From Naegleria gruberi (taxonomy: Eukaryota): a stretch of DNA of 64,000 nt. Both the position numbers and the translations under genes were made by a program. Shown here piece by piece: positions 1 to 47,518 of the stretch. Position 1 is the first letter of the stretch; each line of letters opens with the position of its first letter. The stretch lies in assembly GCA_000004985.1 (NCBI GenBank), contig GG738892.1; one strand, 5' to 3'. Under the pieces are notes generated by a model. It was not told the DNA's origin, did no database searches, and was given only the letters and a program-made list of their open reading frames with translations.

Positions 1-56
1 TTGACAACTGGAGCAATATTGATTCTAGGCACAATGAGGAAATTTGTGGACATGTC

Positions 57-3000
57 AGGATGTTTGGTATATAAATTATTCAATCCCTTTTCAAACAGTA
101 AACTATAGGTCTCTGAAGGAATAGCAATCTTGATGGTCGGATTAAAACTGAGAATAGCCTCAATCCAAGATATTGATTCTGTTTCATGAGCAAGAATAAT
201 GACTGCCTCAATATTTTGATTGGAAAGTTGGATTGCAGTTGAGGTTGGATTACTCACAACATCAAAAACTTCCAATCCAACATCATAATTCTCAATATAT
301 TCCTTAATGGATGGTATTGTTTTTGTTGTATAATATCCAATTGGTGAATAGAGAATTGAAGCTTGTCCGTAGGTTTGCTTAAAATATTTCATTTGGGCAA
401 TTACTTCATCAAATACTGATGGTCTCCAATTAATAAAGTATTTAGAGTATGGTTTTCTATATTCTAGCGAACCAGCCAAGACAAACATTGGAATTTGATA
501 CTTTTTCAAAATATCCGTCACATTTCCATATTGATCAACACTCAATCTCAAATTACTTCCAAAAAAGCCAAATACACCCTGTTTTGTGGAAAGGGATTGT
601 AACTTGTATTCGAGACCATATTTCTCAACTTCTCCAGAAAAATATTCTGTGTGAATTTCAATTTTTTGAGATGCTTTGGAATTGTAAACAGTGAGATAGG
701 TTTGAAGACCTCTTGAATAGGCATCATATGAATGAGGTGCCTCAGATATCAAATCCAATTTTCCTGCCTTTGTGGAACTGTCATCATCATAGGGAATAAG
801 ACGACCGAATATAATTGGTTTTGAAATTACACTAGAAATGGAATCTGCCAATCCACTTCTTCTATAGGTTCCCTTATAATCTTGGAATGCACAAGAAGCT
901 GTATCATATTGTTTGGTAAATGTCTCAGTAAAAACAGATCCGGAATAGGAGTATAAAAACCCAGTTCTCAATCCCAAATTACATGGATTGGTGGCAGATT
1001 TAGAAAACGCTCCAAAAGTTATACCAGTTTCAGATTCCTTAATTACAGATTGAGTATAGACATAATCCATAAACGATTTTTTGGTAATTTGATTTCCCAC
1101 TGTATCCACTATTGTGGTAATAAATTTTCCAATATAATAACCTTCCAAAGTTCTTTTGTGTGCCCAAACTGATGAATCCGAAGGATAGTAATCCTTGATT
1201 ACCTTGTTAAACTCTGTAACAAATGAATTTGAGCTTGATGAAAATGATGGGATGTGAGAAACATAGAAAACTTGGAATGGAGAGGATGGATTCACGTTAG
1301 CTGCTAAGAATGATTTCATCTTGGTTTCTACATGATCAGAAAAATAAGAATTAATCAGATAAATACTCAATCCCTTTCTGAAAACTGGATTGGTTGTGTA
1401 GGTGAGCTGAATCTTTGAAAGTATAGATACAATGCTATCATAACTATCAAAGAGAGTAATGAGTAAAACTTGTGGATTGGCATTACTAGTCAATTCATCA
1501 ATGATTGTATCCAATGATTTAAGGCCTGAATCTGAATTGATGATAGAAGATTGACTGTCAATATTCAAATTAATAATATTCATCATGGTGGAAAATGTTT
1601 GGAAAGCTTCACTTGAATACGGGCAATCAGGTTTGTAAATAACACTCATTCTAGATTGAGCTTGTTTCATACTATAAGTAATTAAAGTTCCCAATTGTTC
1701 TGTCAATGTCAAGTGTAAATTCATAACAGGAGAATAGAACGAGCTCCTAAGAGTTCTCAAATTTGTAGCAGCAATCACACTAGCAATATCTGAATACTCA
1801 CTGTTTTGTTTGATATCAAGAGTTTGTGCATTATTAATTCCATCCAAATTGAGTACACCCTCTGTGAAACCAACCAATGCAACAGATTCATGCAAATTCT
1901 TTAATTCTCTTGTGTTGAAGAGAAGTGAACTAGAATCGTTGTGATAAAGAGTTTTCAATTCGATTTGCAATTTGTCAGAGGAAACTTTGGAATTTCTTCT
2001 CTTGAAAGCAGCTTGAATTCCCTTTCTTAACATTTCATCTTGAAGATTTTCTTTTTCAATGGATTGACCAAATATTATTGGTTTCTTGAGAATGGATGTA
2101 TCTGAAATGCAAGATCCATATTCGTACCATGAAAGTTGTTTAAAAACTGAGAATGAAACATTGGAAACGTATGGTGTTTTTCCAATATTAACAGAACTCA
2201 AATAAACAATCTTGAGTCCTTGATTGCAATTTGAAGCACAACTAACAGATGTTGCATTGGCAGAGAATGGTAAATATTGATCATAGACATTGGCACTTTC
2301 ACACCATTTGAAATTGACCTTGGTTCCATCAAAAACAAATGAACCACCATTATTAGTCTCAGAATTACCTGCAGTATAATCAATGTAAGATGTTGCAATA
2401 AAATTTGATCTTGTTAAATCACCTATAATAGTTTTGAGCATTGAATAGGCAAGCTTTCCAGTCAAATAACCCTCGAGTTCAATAAATGTTGGTTGAAAGG
2501 TAGAAACGTCCTTTCCAGTTGCTTTCAGATAAGCCTTTCTAGCTCTGTGATAAGACCTCACAACTGGTACTGTCAAATCCATTGGACTCGGCACGACTTG
2601 TGAAATGATAACATTATCCGTATAATATGTCGATGCAAATTTTAAAGAAGGCAAAGGGGATTGATTCAAATCATCAGTCAGGGCAGCACTTCCAACAAAA
2701 CTAACTGTCAAGAATATCATTTCACTTGCCTTTTCATATCCGTAATTTGTTCCGTTAGCAGAGAAGGCCACATTCTTTACCATTTTGATATATTTTGAAA
2801 GTGGAGCATACGTTCCAACAAGTACAATTGCCTCAGGATTACACTTTCCAATCGTATAGAAGGCATCTTCAACTGCCAATGTATTTCTAGTGTACAGACC
2901 TGTAGAGCAGAGTGAAATGTTCATTCGTGAGACGAGGGATCTGTTAATTCCGTTAAAACCAGCAATACCAAAGGCATCATTCTGATACATGATACTAATT

Positions 3001-4074
3001 CTTCTGATGAGTTTGGTATTTACAAGCCAATCAACCATGGCAGCAGTTTCATCATCATACGAAGCTCTCAAATTAATAACATTTGGATAGAAAGGTGTTC
3101 TAAGCCAACCAACTCCAGTGAATGAACCAAGAAGTGGAATGGAAGTTTTAGTAACATCTGGAAAGACTGCACTAACAGTTGGTGTTCCTATTATATCAAT
3201 ATTCAATTCATTAATAACATGTATATGGAGGAATAAATAGGTGATGATGGTAGTTTAGATTAAATAAGAACAGAGGAACTGTTACTACTTACCAACATAT
3301 CCAATTAATCCAAATATTTTACTAACATCTACACTTGTAATAAATTGAGGAGATGATGAGTTAAGGTAAGGCTGATAAATAAGCGAGCTGGTAGGGGGTG
3401 TTGTATTATAGAGAAAGAAGTCGGTATTAATCTTTGTATTGGTAGGCTCATAGGCATCATCTAATTGTACAATTTTATCACATGTTTACATTATTTTCAT
3501 CGTTCATGTATTCAATGTATTCAATACCCAAAACATAATAATATAAATTAAATACCGACCGAACAACAATATTACATACCCAAAGTTAAGAGTTTCAGCT
3601 TTTTGTTATTCCAAACTCCTCCCATAGAATTAACTTCTTCAAAAGCCGCTAAAATTCCATCTCTCATTTCAGTTCCCAATCTAAAGTAACAATATCATGA
3701 AGAAAGAAAGTATATTAAGGGAATTTCAAAAATAATTACATGTTCTTTCCAATGCATAGAACTTACTTTTTAGAAAGGCCAGTGAGTGGAGCTGACTGTG
3801 CAAACCATATTTCCTGTTCGTTATTCCACAGCACAGTGTCTTCCCAAGGTCGTTTCGGCGATATTGCTGTTGTTGACGACGAGCCGTTCAGTTCGACCAT
3901 TATTAAAAGTGTTACTAGGAGGAGGATTGATATTGTTGTGATGAAGGAAGAGTAGAATGCTCTGAAATGTTGCTGTTGTGGTCTTCCTCTTGCTGCCTGA
4001 TGATGAGAATGAGGTAGGCTGTTAGAGAGGCACTTGGCCTTATTTAACCTCAATATGTCCACTCGTTGTAGCAT
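57..4074 (-). CDS. Large secreted/extracellular protein with about three tandem ANF-receptor-like (periplasmic-binding-protein type I, LIVBP-like) domains. Multi-exon: complement(join(57..3187,3293..3460,3580..3680,3767..~4074)). The 5' exon start is uncertain.
   Basis: A long open minus-strand frame lies over 57..3187; it is absent from the ORF track because the spliced exons lack an ATG. GT..AG introns read directly: GTAAGTAG...ATAG (3188..3292), GTATGTAA...AATTAG (3461..3579), GTAAGT...TTTAG (3681..3766). The translation has repeated PBP1/ANF-receptor signatures, e.g. MRDGILAAFEEVN..GG..KLKLLTLDD and IFGLIGYVGTPTVSAVFPDVTKTSIPLLGSFTG...IMYQNDAFG, with similar blocks repeated twice more. 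Exon 1 encodes a hydrophobic signal-peptide-like stretch (FITTISILLLVTLLIMV). The stop TGA is near 57. Confidence 0.6.
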
Positions 4075-5989: not shown

Positions 5990-8900
5990 ATGTCCAATCA
6001 AACCAAGATGGATCTTTCCATCGCTGAGAGAAGAGCCTACGAATTTCTTCTCCGTTCTGAAGAAGCCAAACGTTGGATTGAAGAAATGATTCAGGAAAAA
6101 TTCGGTCAAGGCTCATCCATTGCCTACTTTGGTGAAATGATGAGAGATGGTGTGGCCCTTGCAAAGCTCGCCAAAATTTTCGCGCCAACCCACGTAAAAA
6201 AAATCAACAAGCCTAGTCAGAATGCGATCAAGTTGGAATTTTCCTTGGTTGATAATATTACTCAATTTTTGAATGCTTGTAAATCAACTGGTTTTAGAGA
6301 GATTTATCTTTTTGGTATGTTTTGTTTTTTTGAAGTGATTTTTATTCATATTTGTATTGTTTACTTGTTGTGTGTATTGATAATTTTTGTGATGATGACT
6401 ACTTGTTATGATTCATATGAATGATGGTTGTGTGATATGATGATGATTGATGATAATATAATACTACAATATAGAGGTTACCGATTTGTGGGAATTGAAG
6501 AATGTTTACAAAGTGGTGCATTGTCTCCATTCACTTTCTGTTTACTTATACACAAATGGTTTGTCAATCAAGATGGAAAGACTCAAGTCACTCAATATTT
6601 CTAGGGAAGATTTGGAACGTACAAAGAAAATGCTTGATGATTTGGAAAATTCTGGTATCAAATTTGATGATTCCATGATTGAAGGTGATGAAGGTGAAAG
6701 TAGCGAAGATTGTGACACTGATGTTAGATCAGACAAAATTAGAGAATACGTCACTAGTTTGGCCGATCCAGATCATTGTAAAGTAGATGGAGATAAGTTA
6801 AATTCAGCCATTTGTGGTGTGGAATCAAAATTCACAATCACAGCTTTTGATTCAGATGGTAATTTATTAAAGGGTTGCCAAGACAAATTTGAAGTTCAAT
6901 TGCAATCAGGATCAACAACATTCAATGCAAACGTCAAAAATAATAGAGATGGTACTTTTGAAGTGAGCTACACTCCTCAAGTTGCTGGTGACTATGTCAT
7001 GACCATTTCTCTCTTTGATGATGAATTGGGTGATGTTGTAGGTAACATTACAAATAAGAATGCATCAGATGGTGCTTGGAAAGTCAAGATTACAGCAAAC
7101 CCTGTTTCTGATCTATCAAAATGTGTACTCAAACAACAAAGAGATAATGCCAAGAGAGTATATAGAGCTGGTCAAGTTATTGATGATCTCATCTTGGAAA
7201 GTAGAGACTCATGCGGAAATATTGGTCTTGGAGGTGAAAAATTCGCTGCCAAGCTCATTTCCACTGTTGACAAGTCTGTTGTTTTCAATTCTAATGTTTT
7301 GGACAATAAGAATGGTCTCTATCAATTCATCTTCCAAATTGAAAGATCTGGTTCTTATGAATTGGAAGTTACTCGTGGTGATGAATACCTCTCCTCAACT
7401 CGTATTCCAGTCTCAATTCATGATTCTGGTAAGACTGATCCAAACAATTGTCTCTTCATTGGATTGGAAAGCAATTTGCTTCACTTGCTTGAAGATAATG
7501 GCAGCGAGTCCAACAAGGTCTTATCTTTGAGAAAGAAGGAAAATATTGTTAAATTGGAAAGAAAGGCAGGCGATGTCATTAGATTCTTGGTTCAAGCTCG
7601 TGACCAATATGGTAACAATCGTGAAGTTGATGGAACTAATGAATCCACTCTTCCACAACTCGTCTCTGAACAATTGACTGTTATTGCTTGTTTGGAAAGC
7701 TCTGATTCACCAACTATTGAAAATATTGACTCTGTTTTGATGACTCCAAGAACTGCCATGGTTGCCAAGAAACTTGGTGAATCAGGTACTCAATCCGATG
7801 GTGTTGCTGTTGATTCTACAATTGTCAAGATTCCACACATGAAGAACGACTCTGAATTGAGTGTATTGTTGGGTCTTGAACAATATGCCCAAAAGTTCAA
7901 TGGTTCTCAAGAAATGGAAAAGAAACTCTTTGAAACCATGTCCAAGTTTGTTTCTGAAAATGGTCATCACGGTTTGTACCTTGTTGAAACTAAATTGGTC
8001 GAAAGTGGAGACTATTCTTTGCAATGTAACTTGTTACAAGGAGATTGTACTTCCACATCAACTGCCGAAACTGACTCTGAATCCAAATCAAAGCCAACTC
8101 TCTACGCTGTTGGTCCAGCTCACACTGTTCACATTACTGATAATGGTCTCACTGATGCTAGTCAATGTGCAATTGTTCAAAGTTTCTCCAAGGGTGAAAG
8201 TGTTTCCAATACTGTTGTTGTTCCAAACAGCTCACTCAAGTTGGATCTCCAGAAGGATGATTATGAAAATCCAGACAATTTTTCCGATACTTTCAAAAAG
8301 TTCCATGCTGGTCGTGAAATGCACATTATTGTTCAAGCTCGTGACAAGTTTGGAAATGCTCGTAACATTGTAGAAAGTGATGAATTCTTATTGAAACTCA
8401 CTCCAAAACAAAAATCAGAACAATCTACTGAAGTTATTCCAGTGTCTGCCTCCTCACAAAAATTCGTTCAAGGAAAGGGTCTCTTTGAAATTGTCTACAC
8501 TGCCAAGATTGCTCAATCATACTATATGGAATTGGCATATGTTGACAAGTCTAAACTTGCTCCAGAAGTCACTGAACAAGAAAAGGCAGCTGCTGCTCAA
8601 TTGATCAAATCATTCCCACAAGAAATTACTGTCACTGATGCTGCAATTACTGATCCACACAATCTTTTATTCTCTGGTACTGGTATTACTAATGCTGTTC
8701 AAGGAAAGGAAAGTTTCTTTGTTTTGAGAATGAGAGATGAATTTGGTAACTTGAGACACCAAGGAGGAGATGATGTTAAGGCTACTCTCATTTCTGATGC
8801 TCGTAAGCTCGAATCTGCTGCCGAAGTTATTGACAATAAGGATGGTTCATACACTGTCAAGTATGTTGCTAAGGCCTCCGGTAAGAATCGTTTCGAAATT

Positions 8901-11321
8901 GTTATCAATGGTCAACTTGTCAAGAATAATGACATTTTGGATGCTGGTGTTTTCGTTTCACCACCAAATATTGAAGATGCAAGCAATGTTGAAACTATTC
9001 TTGATCACGATTTACTCTCTGCCCTCATGAATGCTTTCCGTGTTGAACAAAAGACTGATAACTTGGTTGAACAAATCCAAGCTCTCAGACAAGAATTGGT
9101 TAAACAACTTCGTGAAAACACCAAGATTAGTACTGATGTCAGAGATAAGGAAAGAAAGATTGCTCTCCTTGCTGAAAACAAGTATCGTGCTGAAGAAATC
9201 ATGAATCAAGGAAAGAGTGGTATTATTGGTTACTTCCAACGTCGTAAGACTATGCAATTCGGTGGACCTCTTGGAATTACCTCTGCTGCTGATGCCATGA
9301 TTAAGGAAAATATCAGTCTCTATGGTAACTTGTTCTACTTGCTTCAAACTAATCCAAAGTATCTTGCCAAGTGTATTTTCCTCGTTCCTGCATCAGATGT
9401 TGATCAATTCCTCAATACTGTCACTTTGACCTTGTACGGTTATGCTTTCAATCCTCGTGAAGAATATTTGATTTTGAACTTGTTCAATGAAACTCTCCAA
9501 CTCGAAGTTAAGAGTTCCACATTGGAAAGTTTCTTGTCTGGTAACCCAATTCTCATCAAATTGTTGATTACTTATTGTCACGAAAGAATTTCAGGAAAGA
9601 CCTTCTTGCAAAAGGTTTTGTACGACAAGATTTTGGATCCTATCCTCGAAGAAAAGGATCTCAACTTGGATCTTAACCCAATCAGTCTTCTCCGTGATAT
9701 TGTCTCTCAAAAGGAAGTTGAAACTGGTATCAAGAGCAATATTGACTTTAAGGAAATGACCTATGAAAAGGCTATGGAAGCTGATGAAAATGTTCGTAAT
9801 GCCATCAATTCTAGAAAGAACAGCTTGATCAAGATTTGTGAACAAATTCTCAATTGTATCTATGATAACATTCCTGAATTGCCATATGGTTTACGTTTCG
9901 TTTGTCGTCAATTGAGAACTTTGCTCATGCAAAAGTATCCAAATCACGATGATGAAAAGAAGATTAACCAAGTCATTTCATACGTTCTCTTCTTCCGTTA
10001 TTTGAACGCTCCACTTTGTACTCCTGATGGTTACAATTTGACAAAGAAGAAGATTTCTCCACTCATGAGAAACAATCTTGCCCTCATTTCAAAGGTCTTG
10101 TTGAGAATTTCTACCTTCAGAGAATTTGAAGCCGTGGATACTCACATGTTAATGATGAACGAATGGATTCGTGACAATATTCCATTGTTTAGCCAAAAGT
10201 TCTTGACTCCAAGTTTGGAAATCGTTGAACCAGAAGAATATCTCGGTGTCAATCAATATGCTGAACTTACTCAAAAGAAGAATCCAAGCATTACCATTAC
10301 TATTAATGAAATTGCCCTTACTCACTCTCTCCTTGTCAAGTTCAGCGGAAGAATCATCCCAACTGGTGAAGCTGCCGATCCACTTTCTGACCTCCTCACT
10401 CGTTTCAAGGATAAGATTCCAGAACAAGTTGAAACTGCCAAGAATGAAGAAATTACATTGTCTCTTGTCCCATTCAGTGTCAATGGAAAGGCTGAAGCCA
10501 CTGATGACTGGCTCACACTTTCACCAGAACAATTGTACGAAGTTACAAAGGAAAATGTTAGAACTATTCTTCGTTACATTACTCCACTTCAATTGGGAGA
10601 AACCGTTGAGGATACCTTGTCAAAGTCTGACTCTTATGCTGACGAAGTATTGAAGAATACTGAAAATATTGACAATGAAGTTGCTGGTTTGACAATCAAG
10701 AGAAAGGTCGAAGAAATTCGTAAGGCCCTTCCAAAATTGGATGAAGCTCAAATCATTACCAAGGAAAATCACTACCGTAAATTGTTGATCGATATCACTA
10801 AGGAAATTCAAAATCGTGAAGAACTCCAAAAGAAGCAACAAAAGGAAGTGGAAAGATTGAAGGAAAGTTTGAACAGTTTGAGATCATATCACTCATTCTT
10901 GAAGGACAAGGATGTCAGCTTGGATGAATACGTTCAACAAACTCTCAGAAACTATTTCAAGAAGCAAGAAAAGAAGAAGCAAGAATCTTCATCCAAGAGC
11001 AACAAGGTAAAGAGCTACAAGTTCAGCTATAAGGATTTGTCTGAAAAGTACAAGATTATCCACGACATTCAAGAAGGTTCATTTGGTACTCTCCAAAAGA
11101 AGGTTATCAAGTTTACAATTTCAATGAACGAAGGAGAACCAGGTGTCTTCTCAGTTTGTCCAACACTTGCTGGTAATGTCATTACTACTCTCCAACTCAG
11201 ATTGGAAGATTTGCTCGATAAGCGTGAAAAGGGTCAAGAACATCTCAAGATTGAAGGTGTTGTGCTCAATGTCAACATGACCATTCACTTGCTCAATAAG
11301 AAATTCTTATCAAAGAATTAA
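5990..11321 (+). CDS. IQGAP-family Ras GTPase-activating-like protein. It has an N-terminal calponin-homology domain, multiple filamin-type Ig repeats, a RasGAP-related domain and a RasGAP C-terminus. join(5990..6306,6476..11321).
   Basis: Exon 1 encodes a CH domain (FGEMMRDGVALAKLAKIFAP...). The intron runs GTATGT (6307) to ATATAG (6475). Exon 2 continues the CH domain (DLWELKNVYKVVHCLHSLSVYLY). The GAP-related domain carries the IQGAP-type motif FFRYLNAPLCTPDGYNL (compare YYRYMNPAIVAPD). Repeated beta-rich ~95-aa units are typical of filamin repeats. The C-terminus is coiled-coil and K/E-rich. Confidence 0.8.
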
Positions 11322-14540: not shown

Positions 14541-14689
14541 ATGAGTTGTGGGTTGGTTTCGAAACAGTGGAGGAATGTTGTTGTGGAGTATTCGAAACTA
14601 GATGTAACATTTGTTGGTAAAATTGTACCAAATGATGTTTTTTATCAAGTTGCTGGCTTGATGAAACATTTGACGAAACTTGATGTTAG
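14541..14689 (+). pseudogene. 5'-truncated fragment of an F-box/LRR paralog; it runs into an N-gap.
   Basis: 14527..14689 is near-identical to 15003..15165 of the downstream LRR gene (MSCGLVSKQWRNVVVEYSKLDV...), with one ~66-bp LRR unit deleted. It lacks the F-box-containing N-terminal exon. It is followed by the N-run 14690..14739. Confidence 0.5.
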
Positions 14690-14862
14690 NNNNNNNNNNN
14701 NNNNNNNNNNNNNNNNNNNNNNNNNNNNNNNNNNNNNNNGATTTTTGCTAATTGGGCAGAGCCTTAAAAATCATTGGAGTTTTGAGATTCGAAGCTTATT
14801 GGAAGTTAAATAGTAGCTCTTTACAATTCCTGAACAATTAGGAAAGTTTCTTTTTAAAAAAA

Positions 14863-16129
14863 ATGTTCAAAATGGATGATACGGAGAGGGATATAGGAGA
14901 ACCTTCTTGTAAAAAGAAAAAATTAGAATTTTTGAGTGCTTATCATGTATTTAATAGTGATGAAATTTTGGAAATATTATCGTTCATTCCGAAGGATAAT
15001 GTTAAATTTATTGTAATGAGTTGTGGGTTGGTTTCGAAACAGTGGAGGAATGTTGTTGTGGAGTATTCGAAACTAGATGTAACAATTGTAGATTACAAAT
15101 TGTTGGAAGATTTGAAGGCTAGTCATCATTTAAACAATATTGAAACCTTACGAGTTGGTAAAATTGTACCAAATGATGTTTTTTATCAAGTTGCTGGCTT
15201 GATAAAACATTTGACGAAACTTGATGTTTGTAATTGCCAAATTGGAGCCGAAGGAGCTAAATGGGTTAAAAATTTTGAACAATTAACTGATCTCGACATT
15301 TATGGTAATCTAATTGGTGATGAAGGAGCTGTATTCATTAGTGAAATCAGTTGACTATTTTAAATATTGCAAAAAATTCAATAAGTGCCACTGGAGCCAA
15401 ATTCATTACTCGACTGAACCAATTGACTAGCCTTAATATCGCCTGGAACTTTGAATTACAATTTGAAGGGATAAAACCAATTTGTCAAATAATGAAACAG
15501 TTGACCACTTTCGGTATTGGAAGAATTGCTGTGTTCGATGAGGGAGCAAAATTTATCAGTGAAGAAATGAAACAATTGACTAACTTGGATATCAACAGCA
15601 ATATGCTAGGTTCAGAGGGAGCAAAGTACTTGAGTGGAATGGAAACTTTAAGAGTACTCAATATTGCTGCCAATGATATATTTGATGAAGGGCTAAATAT
15701 ATTAGTGGAATGAGTCAATTGACTGATTTGAGAGTACAGGGAAGTGAGTTAGGTTTCGAAGGTGTAAAACATATTAGTGGAATGAAACAGTTGACAAAAC
15801 TTAATATTGGCTGGAATAAGATTGGATATGAGGGGTTACACTTTCTTAGTGAAATGAATCAATTAACCAGTATTTCCTTCGAAGTTGGCAAGGACGAAAG
15901 TTTGAAAATTGGTATTAAAGAGGCTAAATCATTAAGTGAAATGACCCAATTGACCTTCCTTAATATTTGTGGCCATAAATTAGACTTTGAACAAGCCAAA
16001 CTCATTTCCTGCATGAAACCACTGAAAATCCTTCACATCACAAGCAACGACATTTCCACTGAAGAAGAAAAAACACTGCACGATATGAAACAGTGGGAAT
16101 GTTTAAAAATTTACAAACGTTCCAAATAA
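14863..16129 (+). CDS. F-box-like plus RNI-type leucine-rich-repeat protein with two internal frameshifts (probable pseudogene or sequencing errors).
   Basis: Three contiguous ORFs in three frames (14863..15354, 15351..15713, 15710..16129) all encode the same ~24-aa LRR unit (xQLTxLxIxxNxIGxEGAKxISxM). Against the repeat consensus, a 4-bp deletion sits at ~15348 (agtgaaat/cagttgact where gaaa is expected) and a 1-bp deletion at ~15697 (gaaggg/ctaaa). The N-terminus is ILEILSFIPKDNVKF..CGLVSKQWRNVV (F-box-like). Confidence 0.55.
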
Positions 16130-27982: not shown

Positions 27983-30900
27983 ATGACAACCTCTACTCAA
28001 CCGTTCACACATGGTTCATCATCACCCTCTACATCATCAACAACTGTTTTACCCATAACAGATGTAGGAGGAGGAGGAGTTGATTCATCATCTAGGGTTG
28101 AATTGATGAAGGATGAGCATTATCAAAGAATGGAAAAGAAGGAACATGATGAAGATGGTTATAGAGTGTTCTTTGGTGATAGACAGTTGAATATGAAGCA
28201 GGTTAGGAGGGGATGGTTCGGGATGAAGAGGAAAAGATTTTCCGATAATAGTGTTTCAACTACAAAGGTATGTTCAACTCAGATGAACTATTTAATATTT
28301 ATTAATAATATTTAATATTTAATATTTTTTGTAATCAATAACATGCTGTTGATTGATGGAATGGCAAATTTTGTGTGAAATTAGTACACGTGGTGGAATT
28401 TCATTGTGTTGAATTTATTTCACCAATTGAAACATTTGAGTAATTTGTACTTTCTCCTAGCTCTGATTTTTGCATTCATTCCTGGAGTGAGTCCAACAAC
28501 GCCCATTACACAATTACAAATAATTTTCATTATTTTGGTGAATATGTTGAGAGAGGGAGGTGAAGATATATTGAGATATCTCAATGATAGAAAGGTCAAT
28601 AGAAAGATGACGAATGTTTTGGTGGAGGATAAAGTGGTGCCAATTCACACGAGTAAGGTGAGAGTGGGGGATATTGTGAGAGTGGAATGTGATGAGACTA
28701 TACCTGCTGATATGATTTTGTTGGGATCGTGTCATTGTGAGGAGGAATCAGATGGAAGAGTTTCACTTTCGTCCAATTGCAAAATTGAAACTGCCAATTT
28801 GGATGGTGAGACAAATTTAAAGACAAGATTTGGAATTTTGAATGAAACAGTTCAAATGCCATCAAATCAAACAAAAGAGAATGTAATAATCAATACCTTG
28901 TTACAAATTAAGGGAAGTGTCGATTGTGAACTTCCAAGTGAAAATTTACACAGTTTCAAAGCTAGTGCTCTACTGAAATATTCACAGAATGAATCACAAT
29001 CGAGATTAATTCCCATCAATCAACAACACTTACTTTTGAAAGGAACAATCCTCAAAGCAACTGAATATGTCTATGGATTGGTGATTTATTGTGGAAAGGA
29101 CACCAAAATGATGAGAAACATGCAGAAAGGAAGAGTTAAATTCACCTCTGTGAATTTTACAATGAATATCATGATTGGTATCTTGTTTGTGATCATGTGC
29201 TGTTTGTGTATTGCCTTTGCAGGAGTTTCGTCCTATTTTGAATTCACACTTGCCAAAATTTCAAGCTACACTGGTAAATCTACATTGAATGTCAGCAATG
29301 CTGCCAGTGTTGTGCTCTCCATGATGACATTCTTTATTCTTTTCAATTCGTTGATTCCAATTTCTCTATTTGTGACTTTGGAATTTGTTAGAATGTTTCA
29401 GGCATGGCTTGTGAATATGGATAATGAAATGGCAGTTTACGATGCTGATCCACATGATCCAGTATCGAGAAAGACACTCATTTCTGCATCTTCACTCTCT
29501 TCTGAGCTTTTACCTGATTTGGCAACAGTTGACATTATATTCTCAGATAAGACTGGTACTCTGACAGAAAATTCCATGATTTTCAACAAGATTTGTTTTG
29601 GAACAAACTATGTTCATGATGATAAGGTCAATAATGGTCAACTAAACACTTTGATTCAACAATCTCTTAAAGAAACAACTGATCAAGCTCAAACAAATGA
29701 TTCAAAGAATGAAAATACGTTTGGAGAGGATGAATTATTCCAATCTCTGAATACCATGCTACTTCTCTCACTGTGCCACAATGTAGATGTGAGAGCTTCT
29801 GACGATTCTCAATCTTCCTCAGTGGAATTATTGGAAAATGTCGAAGAAACTCGTCCATACTATGAAGGAGCTAGTGTTGATGAAGTTGCTCTTGTGAATG
29901 GTGCTTTCAATAATGGGTTCAAGTTGAAATTTTACTCTGAAAAGAAAACCATCGTCTCCATATTTGGAATTGATTATACCTTTGAAAGATTGTGTGAAAT
30001 ACCCTTCACACCAGAGAGAAAGAGAATGTCAACCATTTTCAAAATTCCTAAAGAATTTCTTCAAGCTTTCCCAATTTACAGAAGGAAGACAGGACTTGAA
30101 AATGAAGAATCACTTGTCGTCTGTTTCACAAAAGGAGCAGACAGTTTTTTATTCCCATACATTGAGGAAAATCAATCGAATTCAGCACTGAAAGGTAAAC
30201 TTGAACAGCATATTTTGGAGTTTGCCAAAGATGGACTCAGAACACTGTTACTGGCCTACAAGTTTATTCCAAATCAGAATATAGTTGATGAGTTTGTTAT
30301 CAAGTATAATGAATTGAAATCAAAGCAAGAAGTTCAACAAGAGTTGTTAGATACATTGGAAAATGAAATGGAGAGAAATTTACAAATTTCTGGAGCTACT
30401 GGAATTGAAGATTCACTTCAGGAGAAAGTTCCAGAGACTGTCAAATTCTTCCTTGATGCTGGTCTTCAATTGTGGATGCTGACTGGAGATAAGACTGAAA
30501 CGGCGATCAACATTGCAGGAATGTCTAATTTTATTGGAAAGGAAACTAGACTAATCTATCTTAATGGAGAAGAATTTAAATCAGATCAATGCATGGAACA
30601 ATTACAAATCAAACAAAAAGAAATTGGAGAAGAGACGGATGTAGCTCTTGTCATTGATGGATTGGCCCTTTCCTATTGTGTCGAAAACAATGAGAAACAA
30701 GATTTATTCTTTGAAATTGTGAAAAAATGCAAGACTGTCATTTGTTGTAGAGCTACCCCAAAGCAAAAATCACTTCTTGTTGGTATTGCACAAAGGAAAT
30801 TGAAAAAGAAAGGATTAGCTATAGGAGATGGTGCCAATGATGGTAAGTTTATGGTTAGAATTTGAATTTTTACAATTAATAGTTCCAATGATTCAAAAGG

Positions 30901-31769
30901 CAAAGATTGGTGTAGGGATTATTGGAAAGGAAGGATCTCAAGCAAAGCTCAATTCTGATTTTGCCATTCCAAGATTCCACATGTTGAGAAAATTATTGGC
31001 TGTTCATGGAAGATACTCATTTAAGAGATGTGCCAAACACATCTTTTATAGTTTCTACAAGAATATCAGCGTCACTTGTTTGCAGATCTATTTCACCTTC
31101 TATACCATGTATTCAGGTCAGACACTTGTGGATGCCAATAACCTTTCGTGGTGGAATTTATTCTTTACCATTCTCAATACGTTCATTTATGGTTGGTTCG
31201 ATAAGGATATTCGTGAATCAAAATTATTGGATGAAAAACTTGGACCTAAACTGTATGCCAGTTTAAAGAAGGAGAATATCTTTAATCTCTACATGTTTAC
31301 AAGATGGATTGGATCTGGTATTGTTCACTCATTGATAATTTTCATGGTGGTGATTTATGGAACTGAGGGTTCCATTTTCGGCAATGGACAAGATTCAGAT
31401 AGTTTGTGGCTTAAATCTGTGTTGGCAACTTCATGCATGATTTGTGTTGTGAATTTTAAGTGTTATTTGGAGATGGAAGACTTTACAATTATTAATCATG
31501 TATGCATGTTCCTTTCGTTTGTGATTTTCTATGGATACAATATTTTGCTAACAGCTTATCCAAAAACTATTGGAGTAGTAATGACTGACACTTATTTATT
31601 TGGAGCTTGGGATGGTGGAATACGATCTGCTATCTTCTGGTTTGTCCACATCTTTGGTATTGTTGTTCCATTGAGTTTGGATCTTGCTGGTCATGGTTTT
31701 AAAGTGCTTTTTTGGCCTGATGAATATCAGAAAGTGAAATTGATGAAACTTCCAGAACCAAAAGTGTAA
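27983..31769 (+). CDS. P4-type ATPase (phospholipid flippase). join(27983..28267,28385..30842,30883..31769), ~1209 aa.
   Basis: The junction of exons 1 and 2 restores the P4 N-terminal motif SDNSVSTTKYTWWNFIVLNLFHQLKHLSNLYFLL (compare N.I.TTKYT...FLPKNLFEQF.R.AN.YFL). Exon 2 has DKTGTLT (phosphorylation site) and TGDKTETAINIA. The junction of exons 2 and 3 restores GDGANDVPMIQKAKIGVGIIGKEG. The introns are GTATGT (28268) to ATTAG (28384) and GTAAGT (30843) to AATAG (30882). The C-terminal TM bundle is in exon 3. Confidence 0.85.
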
Positions 31770-34439
31770 TTACATCAATAAACATGATTGGTTATCCTCA
31801 TTTGTTGCTGTAACAATATCTGATTTTCCAAATCCCGTATTATTTTCCATAATTGTTGAAGATGTTTCCTCTTCTACATCAGTTTGTTCCAACAATTCTT
31901 TTTGAAGAACAGCTGTTGAATATAGGCCACCAACAACCGACTTGTATAGTTCGGTATTCTTCCTTGATTTTGATAATGTCCTATCAAATGCACTCCAAAA
32001 TGTTACATCCTGCCCTTCATGGTGTGAAAACTTGATAGAGCCAACCATAATTTGATTTGATTTGTAAAATCTAAATGTGTAGATGAGTGAAAGAACATCC
32101 TTCGTCTTGAACATGTGATCGATAGTAAGAGTTCCAACAATAACTTCACCATGATTCGGTAACCTATTGAAAAACCCTTGTCTGTATGCCATATCCATAA
32201 AATCAGCCTTCTCCCTCAAATATTCCAATATCTTGTCAGATATTATTTTGAAATCCAATCCAAATAATAGATATTTCTTGTTGGAAATTTCAGGGACATA
32301 TTTGGTTTTTTGATTGTTTTGGAAAATACTAGTTAATGCAGAATCATTAATTTTGTAATTGTCCATTTCAATTGGATGTGAGATGAGACTTTTGATTTCA
32401 ATCCATAATTTGTGCATTTGTTTAGCCCAGCTTGGATGAATGCTGAAATTCTGTGTAATAATAGGAACATTATCCATATTTAAAAACTCTAACTTTTTCA
32501 GATTGGAAATATCCAGAGAAGACAATTCACAGGTCTCTCTTGTGGTACTATTCTGATTAAAGACGAATCTATTACACCCTGCTAAATCTAAAAGGATGAG
32601 ATTTTCCAAATCTTCTATACACTGTACGTTCAAAACTCTTTGTTGTGGAACAGATTTTAAAACGAATACTTCCAACTTTTTCAAGTCAACAATAGATAGA
32701 CAATCAAAATTTCCATCAATGTTTGGGAATTTCAAATATTTCAAATTTTTAAAGCTCTCAAACTTGGGATAGGAGTTAAAAGTGCTATCTTCACATATGA
32801 TAGACTCTGCATTGTTGCCAAGATTTTTGAAAAATTGTTCTGTGCTGTGAATGGCAGATTGAGAGATATGGATTTGTTTCACTTTGGAGCAACATGCCCA
32901 CACATTAGGTTCAAATGGTATAGATGGTATAACTATTCCGCAAAGAGTCAAACTTTGGAGAGAAGGAGCTACAAGTTTTGAGATAATTGACATGTTATGG
33001 GTTGAAGTCATTTTAAAGCTTTCAAGTTTTGAAAATATGTTAGGAATGATGAACAAGTTAGACTCTTGGCGCTCTTCAATAATGGTAAGGTTTCTGCATG
33101 ATTCTATGTTAAAATGAATATTTTCAGATGGGAGTTTCACTCGGGCACTCTTGTTAAAAATACATGTTAGAGAAAGGTTGATTAATGTATCGTTCAGCTT
33201 GCAAAGCCACTCCAATTGGCTCCACATGCTCATATTAATTATTGTAAAATTCAATCGTGTAATTTTCGTAAAATTAACAAGATACTCCAACATTTGAATC
33301 AGAGTGTTGACAGATGTTTCAATATTAGGAGAATACGTAGAATCGGTAATGTTCGAAATGTCAAAGCATAGAGACAATTCTTGGAGATTGCATCGAGGTT
33401 GGAATGTTGTTGAGGTTAGCATGTTTGGATTTATGCTCTGAAATCCTGTAAATAGTGAATTGAGAAGAAATACATCTTGTGGAGTCTTGATGGCCAAGCT
33501 ACATCTGAAAGATTCGAGAAGCAGGTTCTCTCTTATTTCATTTCTTGAACAAAGAATATTCTTACAATAACTCAGTACATCCCCAATTGTTATACTATTA
33601 CAATGAGTTCCCAAGTCAAGATCGAGATGTTTCAAGGTCCACTGTCCAGCATGATGATCGTTGGAAGAAAACTTCTTGATCATATCCAAAAACAATTTAG
33701 CAATTTCAGTGTTTGATGTTAGTTTCAATTTTAATCCTTCCAATATGTTGAAAAGTCCAATTCCATAATTTTCCAAAGTGAATAATTTTGAAATAGTTGA
33801 AAATATTGGAGAGTCCGCTTCAATGTCCTTATAAATCGTGAGTGAGGATTCAAATTCCATGTATTTTACATTTTTTGTGTTTGCCTGCAAGAAGATTGTC
33901 AACATTTTACAAATACAATTATCGAATACTTGTTTGAAATTTTCATCCCCAATCACATCGCACAGCACATGAATAAATTCAACTCTCTGGTCATAATGTT
34001 TCATGTTACTTGAAATGATTTTTCTAGTTGATGTTAAACCTTGCACTTCAGGAGTGAGATTCCACGTATTTCTCCAAGATTTGAATGCACCTTGCTTTGA
34101 TTTAAAATAGGGTTCAAAAACACTCAATGTTGATAAATTTGATGACTTTTTCTCCTCCGATATTGGTAAGAATTGTTCAATAATTTCCTTACTATTTGGA
34201 GCAATTAAAAGACCTTCATGAACAGTCCTATAAAACTCTCTATTCGTCAATGCTGCTCTCTTGATCAATGTCCAACTATCGAGAAAGGAAAAGATCATTC
34301 TGAGAACATAATTATGTTGTTGTTCATTCGATAAATCTCTTCTATCGCAACCCATTAATAATTTACCAAATGGTTGTTCTTGTCTCTTCATCGATGATGA
34401 ATATTTACATTCTTTGTATGATGATGGAAGACTTTTCAT
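31770..34439 (-). CDS. F-box-like plus leucine-rich-repeat protein (889 aa).
   Basis: Single ORF. N-terminus NYVLRMIFSFLDSWTLIKRAALTNREFYRTV is F-box-like, followed by numerous irregular LRRs (LxxLxLxxC/N). Its stop codon (31770..31772) directly abuts the stop of the convergent P4-ATPase gene (31767..31769). Confidence 0.6.
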   Translation of the reverse strand: MKSLPSSYKECKYSSSMKRQEQPFGKLLMGCDRRDLSNEQQHNYVLRMIFSFLDSWTLIKRAALTNREFYRTVHEGLLIAPNSKEIIEQFLPISEEKKSSNLSTLSVFEPYFKSKQGAFKSWRNTWNLTPEVQGLTSTRKIISSNMKHYDQRVEFIHVLCDVIGDENFKQVFDNCICKMLTIFLQANTKNVKYMEFESSLTIYKDIEADSPIFSTISKLFTLENYGIGLFNILEGLKLKLTSNTEIAKLFLDMIKKFSSNDHHAGQWTLKHLDLDLGTHCNSITIGDVLSYCKNILCSRNEIRENLLLESFRCSLAIKTPQDVFLLNSLFTGFQSINPNMLTSTTFQPRCNLQELSLCFDISNITDSTYSPNIETSVNTLIQMLEYLVNFTKITRLNFTIINMSMWSQLEWLCKLNDTLINLSLTCIFNKSARVKLPSENIHFNIESCRNLTIIEERQESNLFIIPNIFSKLESFKMTSTHNMSIISKLVAPSLQSLTLCGIVIPSIPFEPNVWACCSKVKQIHISQSAIHSTEQFFKNLGNNAESIICEDSTFNSYPKFESFKNLKYLKFPNIDGNFDCLSIVDLKKLEVFVLKSVPQQRVLNVQCIEDLENLILLDLAGCNRFVFNQNSTTRETCELSSLDISNLKKLEFLNMDNVPIITQNFSIHPSWAKQMHKLWIEIKSLISHPIEMDNYKINDSALTSIFQNNQKTKYVPEISNKKYLLFGLDFKIISDKILEYLREKADFMDMAYRQGFFNRLPNHGEVIVGTLTIDHMFKTKDVLSLIYTFRFYKSNQIMVGSIKFSHHEGQDVTFWSAFDRTLSKSRKNTELYKSVVGGLYSTAVLQKELLEQTDVEEETSSTIMENNTGFGKSDIVTATNEDNQSCLLM

Positions 34440-39857: not shown

Positions 39858-42440
39858 TTACCAATTATCACCACAAGAACATTTTCCGTTTTCAAAATGA
39901 TGAAAACGTGAAGCATCTCTTACAATAATTTTGCAGTTTCTGACTTTTGAGATATACTTTGTAGCATTATGGCAATCTCCACAAACTCTCAAATTGTTAG
40001 CAATTCTAATAGTGGAACCTTTTGGTTGGTGAATAAAAGCATAGGCCATGGCCAATTTTTCTGAATGGCGACACAATAAATTCTTTTTCTCGTCGTCTGT
40101 AAATGTTCCGTGTTTAGTAACCCACCTTAAATCAGGCTCATAGCCAGCATCAATCATTTCCTGAGTTAGTTTCATTAACTCTTCTTCTATTTGTTTAATT
40201 TCAGGGTGGTTTTTGTCGTTACTAACAAAACTATATGTTTTTCCATTGATTTCAATAGTTGTTACTCCCGGAATCTTCTTTGCATTTTCTGATTTCATTT
40301 CTTTTTTGAGAAGTTCTACCTCAAGGTCCTCACCAAAGTACGAATAAATATTCGCTAGCAGGATATAATTGGACGAATCAGTTTTGTCTATTTCCTTTAA
40401 AATAGCAAAAGCCTTCCTTGCTCTCTCCAAATCATTATACTTTCTACATCCTCCTAAATAAGTACTCCACAATATTAATTCTTTGCTGTCACCAATTATT
40501 TTTTCTGCTTCTTCAAATAATCCAGAACGAACTAAACCATCCACCAAACAAGCTGTGTGCTTTATGGTTGGTTCGATATGATACTTGCTTGGCAGTTCTC
40601 TATAGAGATTAATGGATTTCTCAGGCATCATGTTGTGGCTGTATGCAGAAAGCATGTGAAGAAGAGTTTCTTCATTCGGTTCGAAGCCTTGCTCTATCAT
40701 CTTGTCGAATATTACTTCTGCCTGTTTGGCTCTCCCATTTTGAGCACATGTTGCGAGTACTACGTTCCATGTAATGATTGAAATTGGGTATTCTCTTCGC
40801 AATAAATCTACAAATAACTCAAAGGTTTTCTCTATTTCTCCCATTTTACCATAAAAGTTTAGGATAGTATTGTGTAGTTCAATTTCCTGAAAATGATATT
40901 TTTCAGCAATTTGATGTATTTCAATACCTTGCTTCAAAGATATACCATCAGAATATAAAGAAAGCATTGATATCAGTGAAATATAATCAAAATTTTTCAA
41001 TCTTAACATTTCTTCAAAAGTTTCTTTTGCCCTATCATAGATTTTGAAAACAGAGTAGAATTTAAGTATAGAATTACGCAATTCCAAACCACATTCAAAA
41101 AGTGGTGGCAGTAGTGCAATAATTTCTTCTCCTTCTTTTTTCAGCAATTTGTTTGTACACTCATTTAGCATTACAATAAATGAAACTTCGGAAGTCTGTT
41201 TAGTTGACATCATGTTGTAAAAGAGAGAGAAGGCTTCTGATATTCTCTCATCTTTGAAGAGGATTTTTAGTATCGTATTACACATTGGAGTATCGGGATT
41301 CTTGAAAGAGTAGAAGGTCTCAATAGATCTCTCAACCTCCCCTAAGTTTGCGTAAAATGAAATTACAGAGTTCATAACAATAGGATCTTTGCATTGGTTT
41401 TGTTCTATTAAACCACATATTTCCTTTCCTCTCTCAAATAGGTTGTTAGAAATACAAGCATTCAGCATAATAACGAATGTGCTATTTGATGGCTCGGCAA
41501 GTCTACGAAAATTTTCAAAAGCAAGATCAATTTTACCGCTTGAAAGAAGAGCTTGTAAGTAACAATTCCAAGTTATTATATTCTTTTGAGGAGAATTAGT
41601 AAACAACTCAATAGCTGTTTCATATTGCCCACATGTGGAATAAAAACTAATTAAACAAGTAATTAAAGTGATATCGTTAAGCAAATGTGGAAACAGTTCA
41701 ACAATAATTCGGTGAATAGATTTTCCTCCTTCTAAATATTTGATTTTAGAGCAAGATTTGATGAGCGTTGTAAACAAAATAGCATCAGGAGAAACACTCA
41801 TTTCCAACAAGATGTTCTTCACATCTTGCAAGCGATAATTCTCTATCAATTTTTCGGTTACTTTTGTTATATCTATTATTGTTGGTGCTTCCATTTGGTT
41901 GAATAGTCTAATTACCATTTCTAGATTTCCAGAAGTACAATACGAATTGAGCAAACAAGACTTGTTCTTTTCGCTCAATGGCACCAAATTGTTGTCCAGT
42001 GTTTCGTACCAAAACTGTGCCTTTTTTTTGAATTTGGGACTTGTGGTCATAGCGTTCAAGATCATGTTCCACAATGTCGGAGAAATTCTTTTAAATTCGT
42101 TTGGTGCAAGTGTGGAGAGGATTTGATTAACTTCTTCTAAATATTCATCTTGAATCCATTTCTCTTGATTAGTTCGCTTGCTAGCAAAATACATGGACGT
42201 TAGAGTATTAACTGAACGTTTTGAAGAAACCCTCTCAAATATTCTTTTACAATCATAAAAGTTAATTTCCTTCTTGTTCAACAAGAAGACAGCGTCAAAA
42301 TCATTAGGGTTTTTAAAATATTCTTGTAGTGCTGCGGTGGGGTTTTTTGGGTCAAATAAGTCTTTCACCTTTCCTAACTTTTTTAATGAGGTTGCAAAGT
42401 GGCGAAGTGTGAACATTTTTTTGATGAAGAACCCCACCAT
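39858..42440 (-). CDS. Pentatricopeptide-repeat protein with a C-terminal E/DYW-type cytidine-deaminase domain (organellar C-to-U RNA-editing-factor type).
   Basis: Single 860-aa ORF. About 15 degenerate 35-aa PPR/TPR-like helical repeats are followed by HSEKLAMAYAFI...IRIANNLRVCGDCHNATKYISKVRNCKIIVRDASRFHHFENGKCSCGDNW. That is the DYW-domain HxE...CxxCH zinc-binding deaminase signature, with terminal DNW in place of DYW. The N-terminus is basic and presequence-like. Confidence 0.8.
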   Translation of the reverse strand: MVGFFIKKMFTLRHFATSLKKLGKVKDLFDPKNPTAALQEYFKNPNDFDAVFLLNKKEINFYDCKRIFERVSSKRSVNTLTSMYFASKRTNQEKWIQDEYLEEVNQILSTLAPNEFKRISPTLWNMILNAMTTSPKFKKKAQFWYETLDNNLVPLSEKNKSCLLNSYCTSGNLEMVIRLFNQMEAPTIIDITKVTEKLIENYRLQDVKNILLEMSVSPDAILFTTLIKSCSKIKYLEGGKSIHRIIVELFPHLLNDITLITCLISFYSTCGQYETAIELFTNSPQKNIITWNCYLQALLSSGKIDLAFENFRRLAEPSNSTFVIMLNACISNNLFERGKEICGLIEQNQCKDPIVMNSVISFYANLGEVERSIETFYSFKNPDTPMCNTILKILFKDERISEAFSLFYNMMSTKQTSEVSFIVMLNECTNKLLKKEGEEIIALLPPLFECGLELRNSILKFYSVFKIYDRAKETFEEMLRLKNFDYISLISMLSLYSDGISLKQGIEIHQIAEKYHFQEIELHNTILNFYGKMGEIEKTFELFVDLLRREYPISIITWNVVLATCAQNGRAKQAEVIFDKMIEQGFEPNEETLLHMLSAYSHNMMPEKSINLYRELPSKYHIEPTIKHTACLVDGLVRSGLFEEAEKIIGDSKELILWSTYLGGCRKYNDLERARKAFAILKEIDKTDSSNYILLANIYSYFGEDLEVELLKKEMKSENAKKIPGVTTIEINGKTYSFVSNDKNHPEIKQIEEELMKLTQEMIDAGYEPDLRWVTKHGTFTDDEKKNLLCRHSEKLAMAYAFIHQPKGSTIRIANNLRVCGDCHNATKYISKVRNCKIIVRDASRFHHFENGKCSCGDNW

Positions 42441-42465
42441 TGGAAGATCCTAACATATTTTGAAA

Positions 42466-45400: not shown

Positions 45401-47518
45401 AATATACTGAAAGCCCAAATAGAACTCTCTCAATAATTGTATTATGCATAACTATAATTTCTATGCTAGTACTGGGATGGTACTTCTATAGATGCATAAC
45501 AGAGTTTGACAATGAGATGACTATCCTTAGATCCTTCCTTGCATATGTCCCATCAGAGTGGATAGAATCTAATGAAGAGTTTAAAAACTTTGTATTTTAC
45601 AAAACTATTCCCATGTGGAATTTCAAGAAATCAAATTCTGCAGTTAAAGGTTCAGATGCAGTTAGTAATATTCTACAATCAATGATTGATGGAGCTTTCA
45701 TAGCAAATGAAAAATCAGAAATCCTATTATTCAACAATGCAGCTCAAAAGATGTTCTCCAAGAACCCGTCTGAAGTTATGGGATTACCTATGCAACATTT
45801 GTTTGACTCATCTCATGAAACTGCGTTGAAACAATTCATAGATAACAGAAACAAGTATTTGGAATCACAAGGAGGTGAGCTATATGAAGTAGATTGTGTA
45901 AGAAAAAATCAAACAAGATTCCCAGCTTCCCTCAATCTGTTTGTTACCAGGAATGAGGATAAAAAGACAATTATTGTTGGATTTTTCAAAGATATAACTA
46001 TGGAGAAGAAACAGAATAATCTTCTCAATGAAGAAAAGAAGAATTCAGATATATTACTTAGGAATATCCTTCCAGAAGCAGTTGCCATCAAATTGAAATC
46101 AGGCGAAACTGAAATTGCAGAAAAATTCCAAGATATTACTTGTTTCTTTTCGGATATCTGTACACAAACTCCCTCCGCTTTTTTAACGGGATCCCAACTT
46201 TGATGACCCACAACAGAATAGTTACTTAGTGATTCATCATAATTTAACTTGTATGGTGTGCGCCTATATGTTAACTATCATCAGAATTGTTTTCAGCAGT
46301 TTATGTGTAGTAGGTCGATTGAAAACCTCAATTGAGTGAAAACATATATGAAAATTTCAAAATCCAATAAAACCAGAACCAGTATATGCCAAGCTCCAAA
46401 TATCGAGATATGTACTCAAAACATCTTGAAATATAACCACAATCATTGGTTTGTTGATATTTATTGTCTGGACAAAGATATGCAGGGTTAAAGTTGAGCT
46501 ATTTTTCAAACTCAACTCAGTTGAAGTGGAACTGAAATGGAAGGTTGTTTCGGACTGAGTACCAAATAAGCAAATAAAGTCAAACAACAAATATTTAAAA
46601 AATTTAAGTTTTATTATTGTTTCTACAACCAAAACAATATTGGTTGTAGTTGTATGTTCAGGAACACAATATTCACCAATGGGAATGTCTTCCTCCTCCA
46701 TGAGAACCATAACAGGTCATTCAAAGAGAACTGTGATGAGAGCAGAAGTGGCAACAACCATGTGAACGGAAGATAGCTTCCTGTATTGCTTGCAAGTCTT
46801 ATCTGGTAGTGTGGTGGGGCATGATGAAGAGAAAGGACCNNNNNNNNNNNNNNNNNNNNNNNNNNNNNNNNNNNNNNNNNNNNNNNNNNACAGAGATTTA
46901 TCATTTGGAAAAGATTAAAACAATTGGGGATGCGTAAGTTGTCTTTTAACAAATTGAGTTCACTAACTGCAATACAAAGATATTTTTGTGTGGGAGGTCT
47001 TCATAATTATCCTCAATCAGATCACCCAGAACGTTCTCTTCGTTTCTCCATTGATACTCTCTCTGTAATTCACAAATATAACGAAGAAAACAATAAGAAG
47101 GTCAATATTAGAATTGGTTTAAATACTGGAAGTGTTATTGCTGGAGTTTTGGGTAAGAAAAAGTTTGCTTACGTAAGTTGAACTTCCTTTCAATATTATT
47201 GATTTCAACAAACAGGATTTATGGGGAGATACTATTAATTTTGCCTCAAGAATGGAATCAACTTCATTACCTGGAAGAATTCATATTTCCAGATCTACCT
47301 ATGAAAGAGTTTATGATTTAGGAATGGAATTTGAAGAAAGAATGGTGGAAGTGAAAGGAAAAGGACTATGTAAAACATATCTTTTGAAGGATAAGTATCA
47401 TGTCAATCCAATTGATACTGAAGTTATTGAAGCAACAAAGTTTGATGAGGAAATGAATGAAATCACTGAAGGTACATCATTGGTTGGTGATGGATTGGTC
47501 AGGCATACAGGTGAATAA
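42466..47518 (+). CDS. Receptor-type class III adenylyl/guanylyl cyclase: N-terminal multi-TM region, large middle domain, TM, PAS domain, C-terminal cyclase catalytic domain. The model is incomplete, with one unresolved frame break (~44920) and an N-gap (46840..46889) inside the catalytic domain.
   Basis: Segments: 42466..44438; a GTAAGA intron to TTGTAG (44478) or AAAATAG (44508); 44479..~44932, which is then out of frame with 44914..46203 (the PAS-like region ILQSMIDGAFIANEKSEILLFNNAAQKMF...VGFFKDITMEKK and the start of the cyclase, FFSDI). After the gap come 46890..46933 (TEIYHLEKIKTIGDA), 46980..47172 (YFCVGGLHNYPQ...IRIGLNTGSVIAGVLGKKKFAY) and 47216..47518 (DLWGDTINFASRMESTSLPGRIHISRSTYERV...), with GTAAGT introns at 46934..46979 and 47173..47215. 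These are the canonical class III cyclase metal-binding and substrate motifs. Confidence 0.6.

Follow-up and report, generated by a model that had tools for sequence, protein, structure and literature searches.

A triple-flytrap gene of Naegleria gruberi and its probable product, a receptor-type adenylate cyclase

Introduction

Receptor adenylate cyclases of trypanosomes consist of two extracellular Venus-flytrap domains, a transmembrane domain and a cyclase domain; they are thought to be activated via ectodomain-controlled dimerisation, and their ligands are still unknown (PMC6027212). Here we describe a gene of Naegleria gruberi that encodes three flytraps of the type I periplasmic binding protein (PBP) fold in tandem. 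It lies on the minus strand at the very beginning (positions 1 to 4074) of a stretch of 64,000 nucleotides of contig GG738892.1 (assembly GCA_000004985.1), which we call the window, and its coding sequence crosses the window edge at base 1. Naegleria, a free-living heterolobosean, and the trypanosomes both belong to the Discoba.

The protein is best compared with ESAG4/GRESAG4.1 and 4.3 of Trypanosoma brucei (1fx2, 1fx4). Like these, it is predicted to combine extracellular flytraps with one membrane helix and one cyclase domain of class III; the motifs of the catalytic domain are shared, and so is the position of an insertion, which lies between CNWP and WNGLRVR. Judging from the alignment gaps, this insertion is shorter in the Naegleria protein. 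Unlike GRESAG4, the Naegleria protein has three flytraps instead of two, the first of them (D1) is of the canonical bacterial LIV-BP-like type, and the end of the catalytic domain is missing from its database model.

Each of its parts also has counterparts elsewhere. The bacterial LivJ/LivK family (4kv7) aligns with D1 by sequence, and models of the second and third flytraps (D2 and D3) superpose on LivJ/K-type proteins. In contrast to that family, the Naegleria domains are triplicated and fused to a membrane helix and a cyclase rather than being partners of an ABC transporter, and D2 and D3 no longer show the family's sequence signature. The animal receptor NPR-A/GC-A likewise has a flytrap ectodomain, a single membrane helix and a dimeric cyclase output. 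However, NPR-A has one flytrap, a kinase-homology domain and a coiled coil, whereas the Naegleria protein has three flytraps and neither extra element, carries adenylate-type specificity residues and misses the ANF_receptor threshold. NPR-C, which has no cyclase domain, is a natural precedent for a ligand decoy, the role that an earlier note on this DNA had considered for the gene. Tandem flytraps are also present in BvgS-type sensor kinases (cited in PMC6027212). As in the Naegleria protein, several flytraps are placed there in series before one membrane helix, and the membrane-proximal ones set a precedent for mechanical or dimerisation roles. The flytraps of BvgS, a bacterial protein, have type II PBP folds, and the output is a histidine kinase.

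Results

The N. gruberi gene very probably encodes a receptor-type adenylate cyclase of class III that crosses the membrane once and is of the trypanosomatid kind, with three flytraps instead of two and the order signal peptide or anchor, D1, D2, D3, transmembrane helix, cyclase domain. When the translation of its last exon was used for a database search, it was 100% identical, with full coverage, to a 1647-residue "predicted protein [Naegleria gruberi]" (XP_002673284.1, EFC40540.1, UniProt D2VRX6; locus NAEGRDRAFT_71740, P0001 in our set). From Met59 (ATG 3900-3898) onwards, the spliced translation of the window equals XP_002673284.1 exactly over 1196 residues, and this validates the three introns of the gene. 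At the window edge the database protein reads INIAPVV and continues with KQESV, followed by the rest of D3, a membrane helix and a cyclase domain. Both the gene and its three flytraps exist, and the window carries the N-terminal ~1250 residues of NAEGRDRAFT_71740. The off-window helix occupies residues 1422-1446 of the extended protein (Kyte-Doolittle mean up to 2.86 in XP_002673284.1). It is the single transmembrane helix predicted between the ectodomain and the catalytic domain, with only ~15 residues separating it from the latter.

The gene spans positions 4074..1 and comprises four exons and three GT..AG introns of 86, 119 and 105 nucleotides, all on the minus strand. Exon 1 (3767..4074) begins with ATG 4074-4072, which encodes the sole in-frame Met upstream of an N-terminal hydrophobic segment. 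Removal of intron 1 (3681..3766, GTAAGT..AG) gives exactly the database protein, and the spliced translations of exon 2 (3580..3680) and exon 3 (3293..3460), which are separated by intron 2 (3461..3579, GTATGT..AG), match it as well. Exon 4 (1..3187) follows intron 3 (3188..3292, GTAAGT..AG) and falls within a single open frame of 1084 codons that runs from 3254 to 3 without a stop. It is open at the window edge, where coding runs on past base 1, and the part of the protein encoded in the window amounts to 1254 residues.

The earlier note had let the coding sequence end at a TGA near 57 and had proposed a soluble decoy without an attached effector or a transmembrane segment. This TGA (55..57 on the minus strand) is out of frame and is not the stop codon of the flytrap gene: the in-frame codons are CCT (59-57), GAC (56-54) and ATG (53-51), read as P-D-M within TKHPDMSTNF, and no stop interrupts the frame before the window ends. 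The alternative offered in the same note, a gene continuing via an intron beyond the window, was correct as to the continuation, but as far as the window shows it is the same open exon, and not an intron, that leads across the edge; in the N. lovaniensis paralogue L002 the corresponding region forms a single unbroken tblastn segment. The identical protein XP_002673284.1 extends further, with a transmembrane helix and then a PF00211 domain, a continuation into a cyclase that the note itself had named as speaking against its proposal. Membrane segments are not missing either, as a hydrophobic signal or anchor is encoded within the window (residues 42-62) and the membrane-spanning helix just outside it. 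A flytrap protein lacking an effector would have had an unusual architecture, but this apparent lack arose because a stop codon was misread and because the window ends within the gene.

The cyclase domain of XP_002673284.1 was recognised as PF00211 (Guanylate_cyc) with 69.6 bits at a cut-off of 21.9 bits. The precomputed Pfam list of this protein, which applies no gathering cut-off, contains PF13458, PF01094 and PF00211. The closest solved cyclase domains are those of T. brucei GRESAG4.3 and 4.1 (1fx4, E 5.5e-24; 1fx2, E 2.3e-22), and the next match follows at E 6e-06. The motifs FTD(V/I)xxST, EVKTxGDSF, (P)DYYG and INxxARIE (also written INxSARIE) are common to the paralogues and GRESAG4. From the established roles in class III cyclases, we take these positions to supply the two metal-binding Asp, the adenine-specifying Lys/Asp and the transition-state Asn/Arg. 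All of them are present in XP_002673284.1, with Lys (in EVKTNGD) and Asp (in PDYYG) as the base-specifying residues. Because a Lys/Asp pair occupies the substrate-defining positions, the residue set points to an adenylate rather than a guanylate cyclase.

The three flytraps lie in tandem. D1 (2100..3837, residues 80-555) spans introns 1-3 and is the membrane-distal, best conserved and LIV-BP-like domain; D2 (840..2099, residues 556-975) is divergent and Pfam-negative; and D3 (1..839) is cut by the window edge, which leaves the first 279 of its ~445 residues (976-1254 of 976-1420). When scanned against Pfam, the whole window protein matched Peripla_BP_6 (PF13458) with E 9e-23 in three stretches. 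D1 alone scored 71.3 bits, well above the cut-off of 31.7 bits, and its best solved relative by sequence was 4kv7, a LIV-binding-protein-like structure from Rhodopirellula baltica (138 bits, E 2.4e-39, nearly full length). D2 alone yielded zero Pfam matches, and D3 alone a weak Peripla_BP_6 match of 16.3 bits, under the cut-off. The ANF_receptor family (PF01094), to which the domains had first been assigned, stayed below its cut-off of 25.4 bits both with the 1254-residue window protein (25.2 bits) and with D1 (20.5 bits). The flytraps are bacterial LIV-BP-like (Peripla_BP_6) domains and not bona fide members of the ANF_receptor family. The Pfam models named for PBP-like domains of adenylate cyclases, PF25495 and PF25493, gave weak matches only. 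A scan of D1 and D2 against NCBIfam for the ligand class returned no equivalog, its sole match being negligible (17.8 bits at a cut-off of 477).

Profile comparison and structure prediction connected D2 and D3 to D1. Using small family alignments, hhalign related D1 to D2 (98.1%, E 1.4e-13, 322 columns), D1 to D3 (98.4%, E 9.7e-15) and D2 to D3 (99.3%, E 2e-20), and the first domains of other family members cross-matched D2 and D3. The AlphaFold2 model of D2 showed a type I PBP fold with a mean predicted local distance difference test score (pLDDT) of 83.8 and a predicted template-modelling score of 0.87. Its top Foldseek match was again 4kv7 (E 2.4e-16, probability 1.00), followed by LivJ/LivK, NPR-C (1jdp) and the flytraps of class C GPCRs. 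Full-length D3, taken from XP_002673284.1, was modelled with a pLDDT of 73.2 and matched PBP type I proteins and the flytraps of metabotropic glutamate receptors with Foldseek E values down to 1.4e-13. The tandem of three type I PBP flytraps that had been read from the sequence was thus borne out by Pfam (D1), hhalign, and AlphaFold2 with Foldseek (D2 and D3): the two-lobed alpha/beta fold was confirmed for each domain, by sequence similarity for D1 and at the level of predicted models for D2 and D3.

At the N-terminus, residues 42-62 (SSFITTISILLLVTLLIMV, 3889..3951 on the minus strand) form a hydrophobic segment with a Kyte-Doolittle mean of up to 2.5 over 19 residues, a putative signal peptide or signal anchor behind which the large PBP/flytrap region would lie outside the cell. 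In position it is equivalent to the signal peptides of the N. gruberi paralogue P0002, where it is classical, and of two loci of Naegleria lovaniensis, L001 and L002, in which a Met and a signal peptide are encoded ahead of the start given in the annotation. The annotations of both N. lovaniensis loci (L001 2659-8479; L002 6682-12239) omit the upstream exon for these elements. In XP_002673284.1, the start Met59 falls inside the hydrophobic segment, and the database start is probably too far downstream. The exact start codon of the flytrap gene is uncertain; with either start, the prediction places the three flytraps outside the cell and the cyclase domain in the cytoplasm.

Collinear paralogues that share this architecture were found in N. 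gruberi (P0002, 1711 residues) and N. lovaniensis (P0003, 1745 residues, and locus L002), and they back the architecture predicted for the off-window part. In its assembly (GCA_003324165.2), the receptor cyclase of L002 is split into a 593-residue "leucine-binding protein" and a 1036-residue cyclase. Between paralogues, identity amounts to 64% in D1, ~39% in D2 and D3, and 45-49% in the cytoplasmic part. Given the difference between 64% in D1 and 39% in D2/D3, D1 is the probable sensor, and D2 and D3 would then serve as a stalk or as dimerisation modules. The juxtamembrane part of D3 contains invariant cysteines, which suggests rigidification by disulfides. The number of flytraps varies within the family, with about one in a Willaertia protein (P0007) and two in P0024. 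Elsewhere in protists and bacteria, domains of the D1 type are combined with seven-transmembrane class C receptors (P0017-19), protein kinases (P0015, P0026) and an MCP signalling domain (P0025).

The window as a whole is AT-rich (~34% G+C) and densely packed with genes, and its introns are short and of the GT..AG type. The earlier note had counted two cyclase genes in it. One cyclase catalytic domain was detected: it belongs to a multi-exon gene at ~42460-47518 (plus strand) that encodes N-terminal membrane segments, a TmcB-type TPR region, a PAS domain and a class III cyclase domain. Its motifs are EKIKTIGDA followed by YFCVGG, IRIGLNTGSVIAGVLGKKKFAY followed by DLWGDTINFASRMES, and VEVKGKG, and the gene contains a gap of 50 N at 46840-46889. 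One Pfam score obtained for this PAS-cyclase is indicative only, as the linker in the query was a guess (DVWGDTVNVASR) and the true spliced sequence from the DNA is DLWGDTINFASR. Neither tblastn with the cyclase domains of the family, nor a family hidden Markov model run on six-frame segments, nor regular expressions for the motifs detected a second cyclase domain in the window. The open reading frame (ORF) at 31770-34439 was considered as a candidate and rejected, as it gave weak tblastn echoes and failed in Pfam.

Several other genes of the window could be assigned. The flytrap gene is adjoined by an IQGAP-like gene (5990-11321, plus strand) with at least one intron at ~6320-6486, whose product has a calponin-homology-like N-terminus together with filamin/Ig repeats and the domains RasGAP and RasGAP_C. 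Another gene, for a P4-type phospholipid flippase ATPase (28406-31769, plus strand), appears as two overlapping ORFs (PhoLip_ATPase_N, E1-E2 and Cation_ATPase; PhoLip_ATPase_C with E 9e-64), and this split implies an intron or a frameshift near 30830-30865. On the minus strand, 39858-42440 encodes an 860-residue pentatricopeptide-repeat protein that also carries the domains E, E+ and DYW deaminase (E 5e-46 for DYW), the architecture of plant-type organellar C-to-U RNA-editing factors, here in a heterolobosean.

The window ends in hexamer arrays of 97-99% identity, (GGGTTT)n with ~90 copies at 62605-63138 and (TGGGTT)n with ~49 copies at 63708-64000, between which lie a gap of 50 N and a piece of unique sequence. 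Read 5' to 3', the G-rich strand points towards the window end, the orientation to be expected where a chromosome or scaffold terminates in telomere-like repeats. Near-identical coding fragments flank 50-N gaps at two places: 14541-14813 and 14863-15354 (gap 14690-14739), and 47543-47764 and 47921-48718 (gap 47695-47744). These look like assembly artefacts, that is, uncollapsed gap flanks, and could corrupt gene models. Larger runs of N at 52844-53874 and 59309-61095 explain the bins with an apparent G+C content of 13-20%.

Discussion

Single class III cyclase domains are active only as dimers. For the N. gruberi receptor cyclase we therefore propose a homodimer, in which the single cyclase domain of each chain would build active sites only at the dimer interface. 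The membrane-distal D1 would bind a small extracellular ligand and close; a small molecule is proposed because D1 is LIV-BP-like. The divergent D2 and D3 would serve as stalk or dimerisation modules, and closure or re-packing of the ectodomain would be relayed via the membrane helix and change how the two catalytic domains are oriented to each other, thereby tuning the synthesis of cyclic AMP.

Some points weigh against this reading of the gene as a receptor adenylate cyclase. Everything beyond base 1 of the window is known from a computational gene model of the same genome. The ATG at 4074 places a leader of 41 residues before the hydrophobic segment, a length seldom seen in cleaved signal peptides. 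The gene model lacks the end of the cyclase domain, so that the protein as modelled might be inactive. The division into D1 as sensor and D2/D3 as stalk is drawn solely from conservation. Finally, a ligand is known for no member, the trypanosomal ones included (PMC6027212).

Three other explanations were weighed against it. A soluble, secreted three-flytrap protein that acts as a ligand decoy or binding protein and ends at the TGA near 57 is hardly credible. It would agree with the fact that no catalytic or C-terminal transmembrane domain lies inside the window, and an N. lovaniensis entry of 593 residues (P0005) resembles a stand-alone PBP protein. However, with the TGA out of frame, the ORF open to base 1 and the identical database protein continuing into a transmembrane helix and a cyclase domain, the gene does not end there. 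P0005 itself covers just the front half of a gene that the annotation has split: 222 nucleotides downstream on the same strand, the following gene encodes PBP and Guanylate_cyc, and tblastn with the N. gruberi protein crosses both models of L002 (residues 200-701, then 704-1611, the latter as one uninterrupted segment). As half of a split model, P0005 provides no evidence for effector-less versions in the genus. Only marginally better placed, and still very improbable, is a receptor guanylate cyclase of the type of the animal atrial natriuretic peptide receptors, which has the layout of flytrap, transmembrane helix and cyclase in common with the N. gruberi protein. NPR-C among the structural matches of D2 and PF01094 in the precomputed annotation of XP_002673284.1 would fit such a receptor, but ANF_receptor remained under its gathering score, there is no kinase-homology domain in the ~15 residues between the membrane helix and the cyclase domain, and the nearest solved domains are those of trypanosomal adenylate cyclases. 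Moreover, the protein has the Lys/Asp pair and not the Glu/Cys pair, the roles of which we take from general knowledge of class III cyclases.

A catalytically dead pseudo-cyclase without the last third of the cyclase domain, which would scaffold or heterodimerise with active paralogues or be decaying, is unlikely, though less so than the two preceding explanations. After AAAHGGQ, XP_002673284.1 jumps to a tail that reads KTKRTYGALRN and lacks the segment VLISE...LGEFxLKG...RLFE carried by the paralogues (also written VLISE...LGEFKLKG). The Pfam match accordingly covers positions 2-161 of the 183 positions of the profile, and another N. gruberi model, P0009, is likewise short there. The LKG strand, which the paralogues have and which carries the phosphate-binding Lys of the cyclase domain, is absent from the XP_002673284.1 model. 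On the other hand, the catalytic residues upstream are all intact, both N. lovaniensis paralogues encode the VLISE...LKG segment contiguously, with no intron after GGQ, and the N. gruberi assembly is interrupted by many gaps of 50 N, whose duplicated flanks upset gene models. As the segment is contiguous in N. lovaniensis and the N. gruberi assembly is rich in gaps, a gene-model or assembly error is the favoured explanation for the absent end. A wrongly removed "intron" would also fit the likeness, by eye only, between the tail and its counterparts in paralogues (KTKRTYGALRN and RTNKREFPAILRN; KKNRIVPLVE and NNKVIPIVE); local alignments of the C-terminal tail of XP_002673284.1 with the post-domain tails of the paralogues were no better than shuffles (z <= 1.3), so this likeness is not statistically significant.

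The receptor adenylate cyclase described here adds one uncharacterised, already catalogued member to the very large cyclase repertoire of Naegleria, which comprises at least 81 cyclases (PMC9928731). Our search of the literature on Naegleria in combination with PBP or receptor-type adenylate cyclases found no paper on the triple-flytrap subfamily. The analysis also exposes errors in public gene models, namely starts inside the signal peptide, a split N. lovaniensis gene and a cyclase end that was possibly excised wrongly.

What the finding adds is that the layout of a trypanosome-style receptor adenylate cyclase is predicted in a free-living heterolobosean, with three flytraps and not two. For its well-conserved, LIV-BP-like outermost module, a ligand may be easier to find than for the trypanosomal ectodomains. 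As a tentative idea that we consider possible but doubtful, the triple-flytrap cyclases might form a distinct, ligand-tractable branch within the Discoba, in which only D1, still close in sequence to the planctomycete LIV-BP-like protein 4kv7 and possibly acquired from bacteria, binds a small nutrient-like ligand and the degenerate, duplicated D2 and D3 form a rigid stalk that transmits the signal. If true, this could reveal the type of ligand that is sensed by the long-orphan ectodomains of the trypanosome adenylate cyclases.

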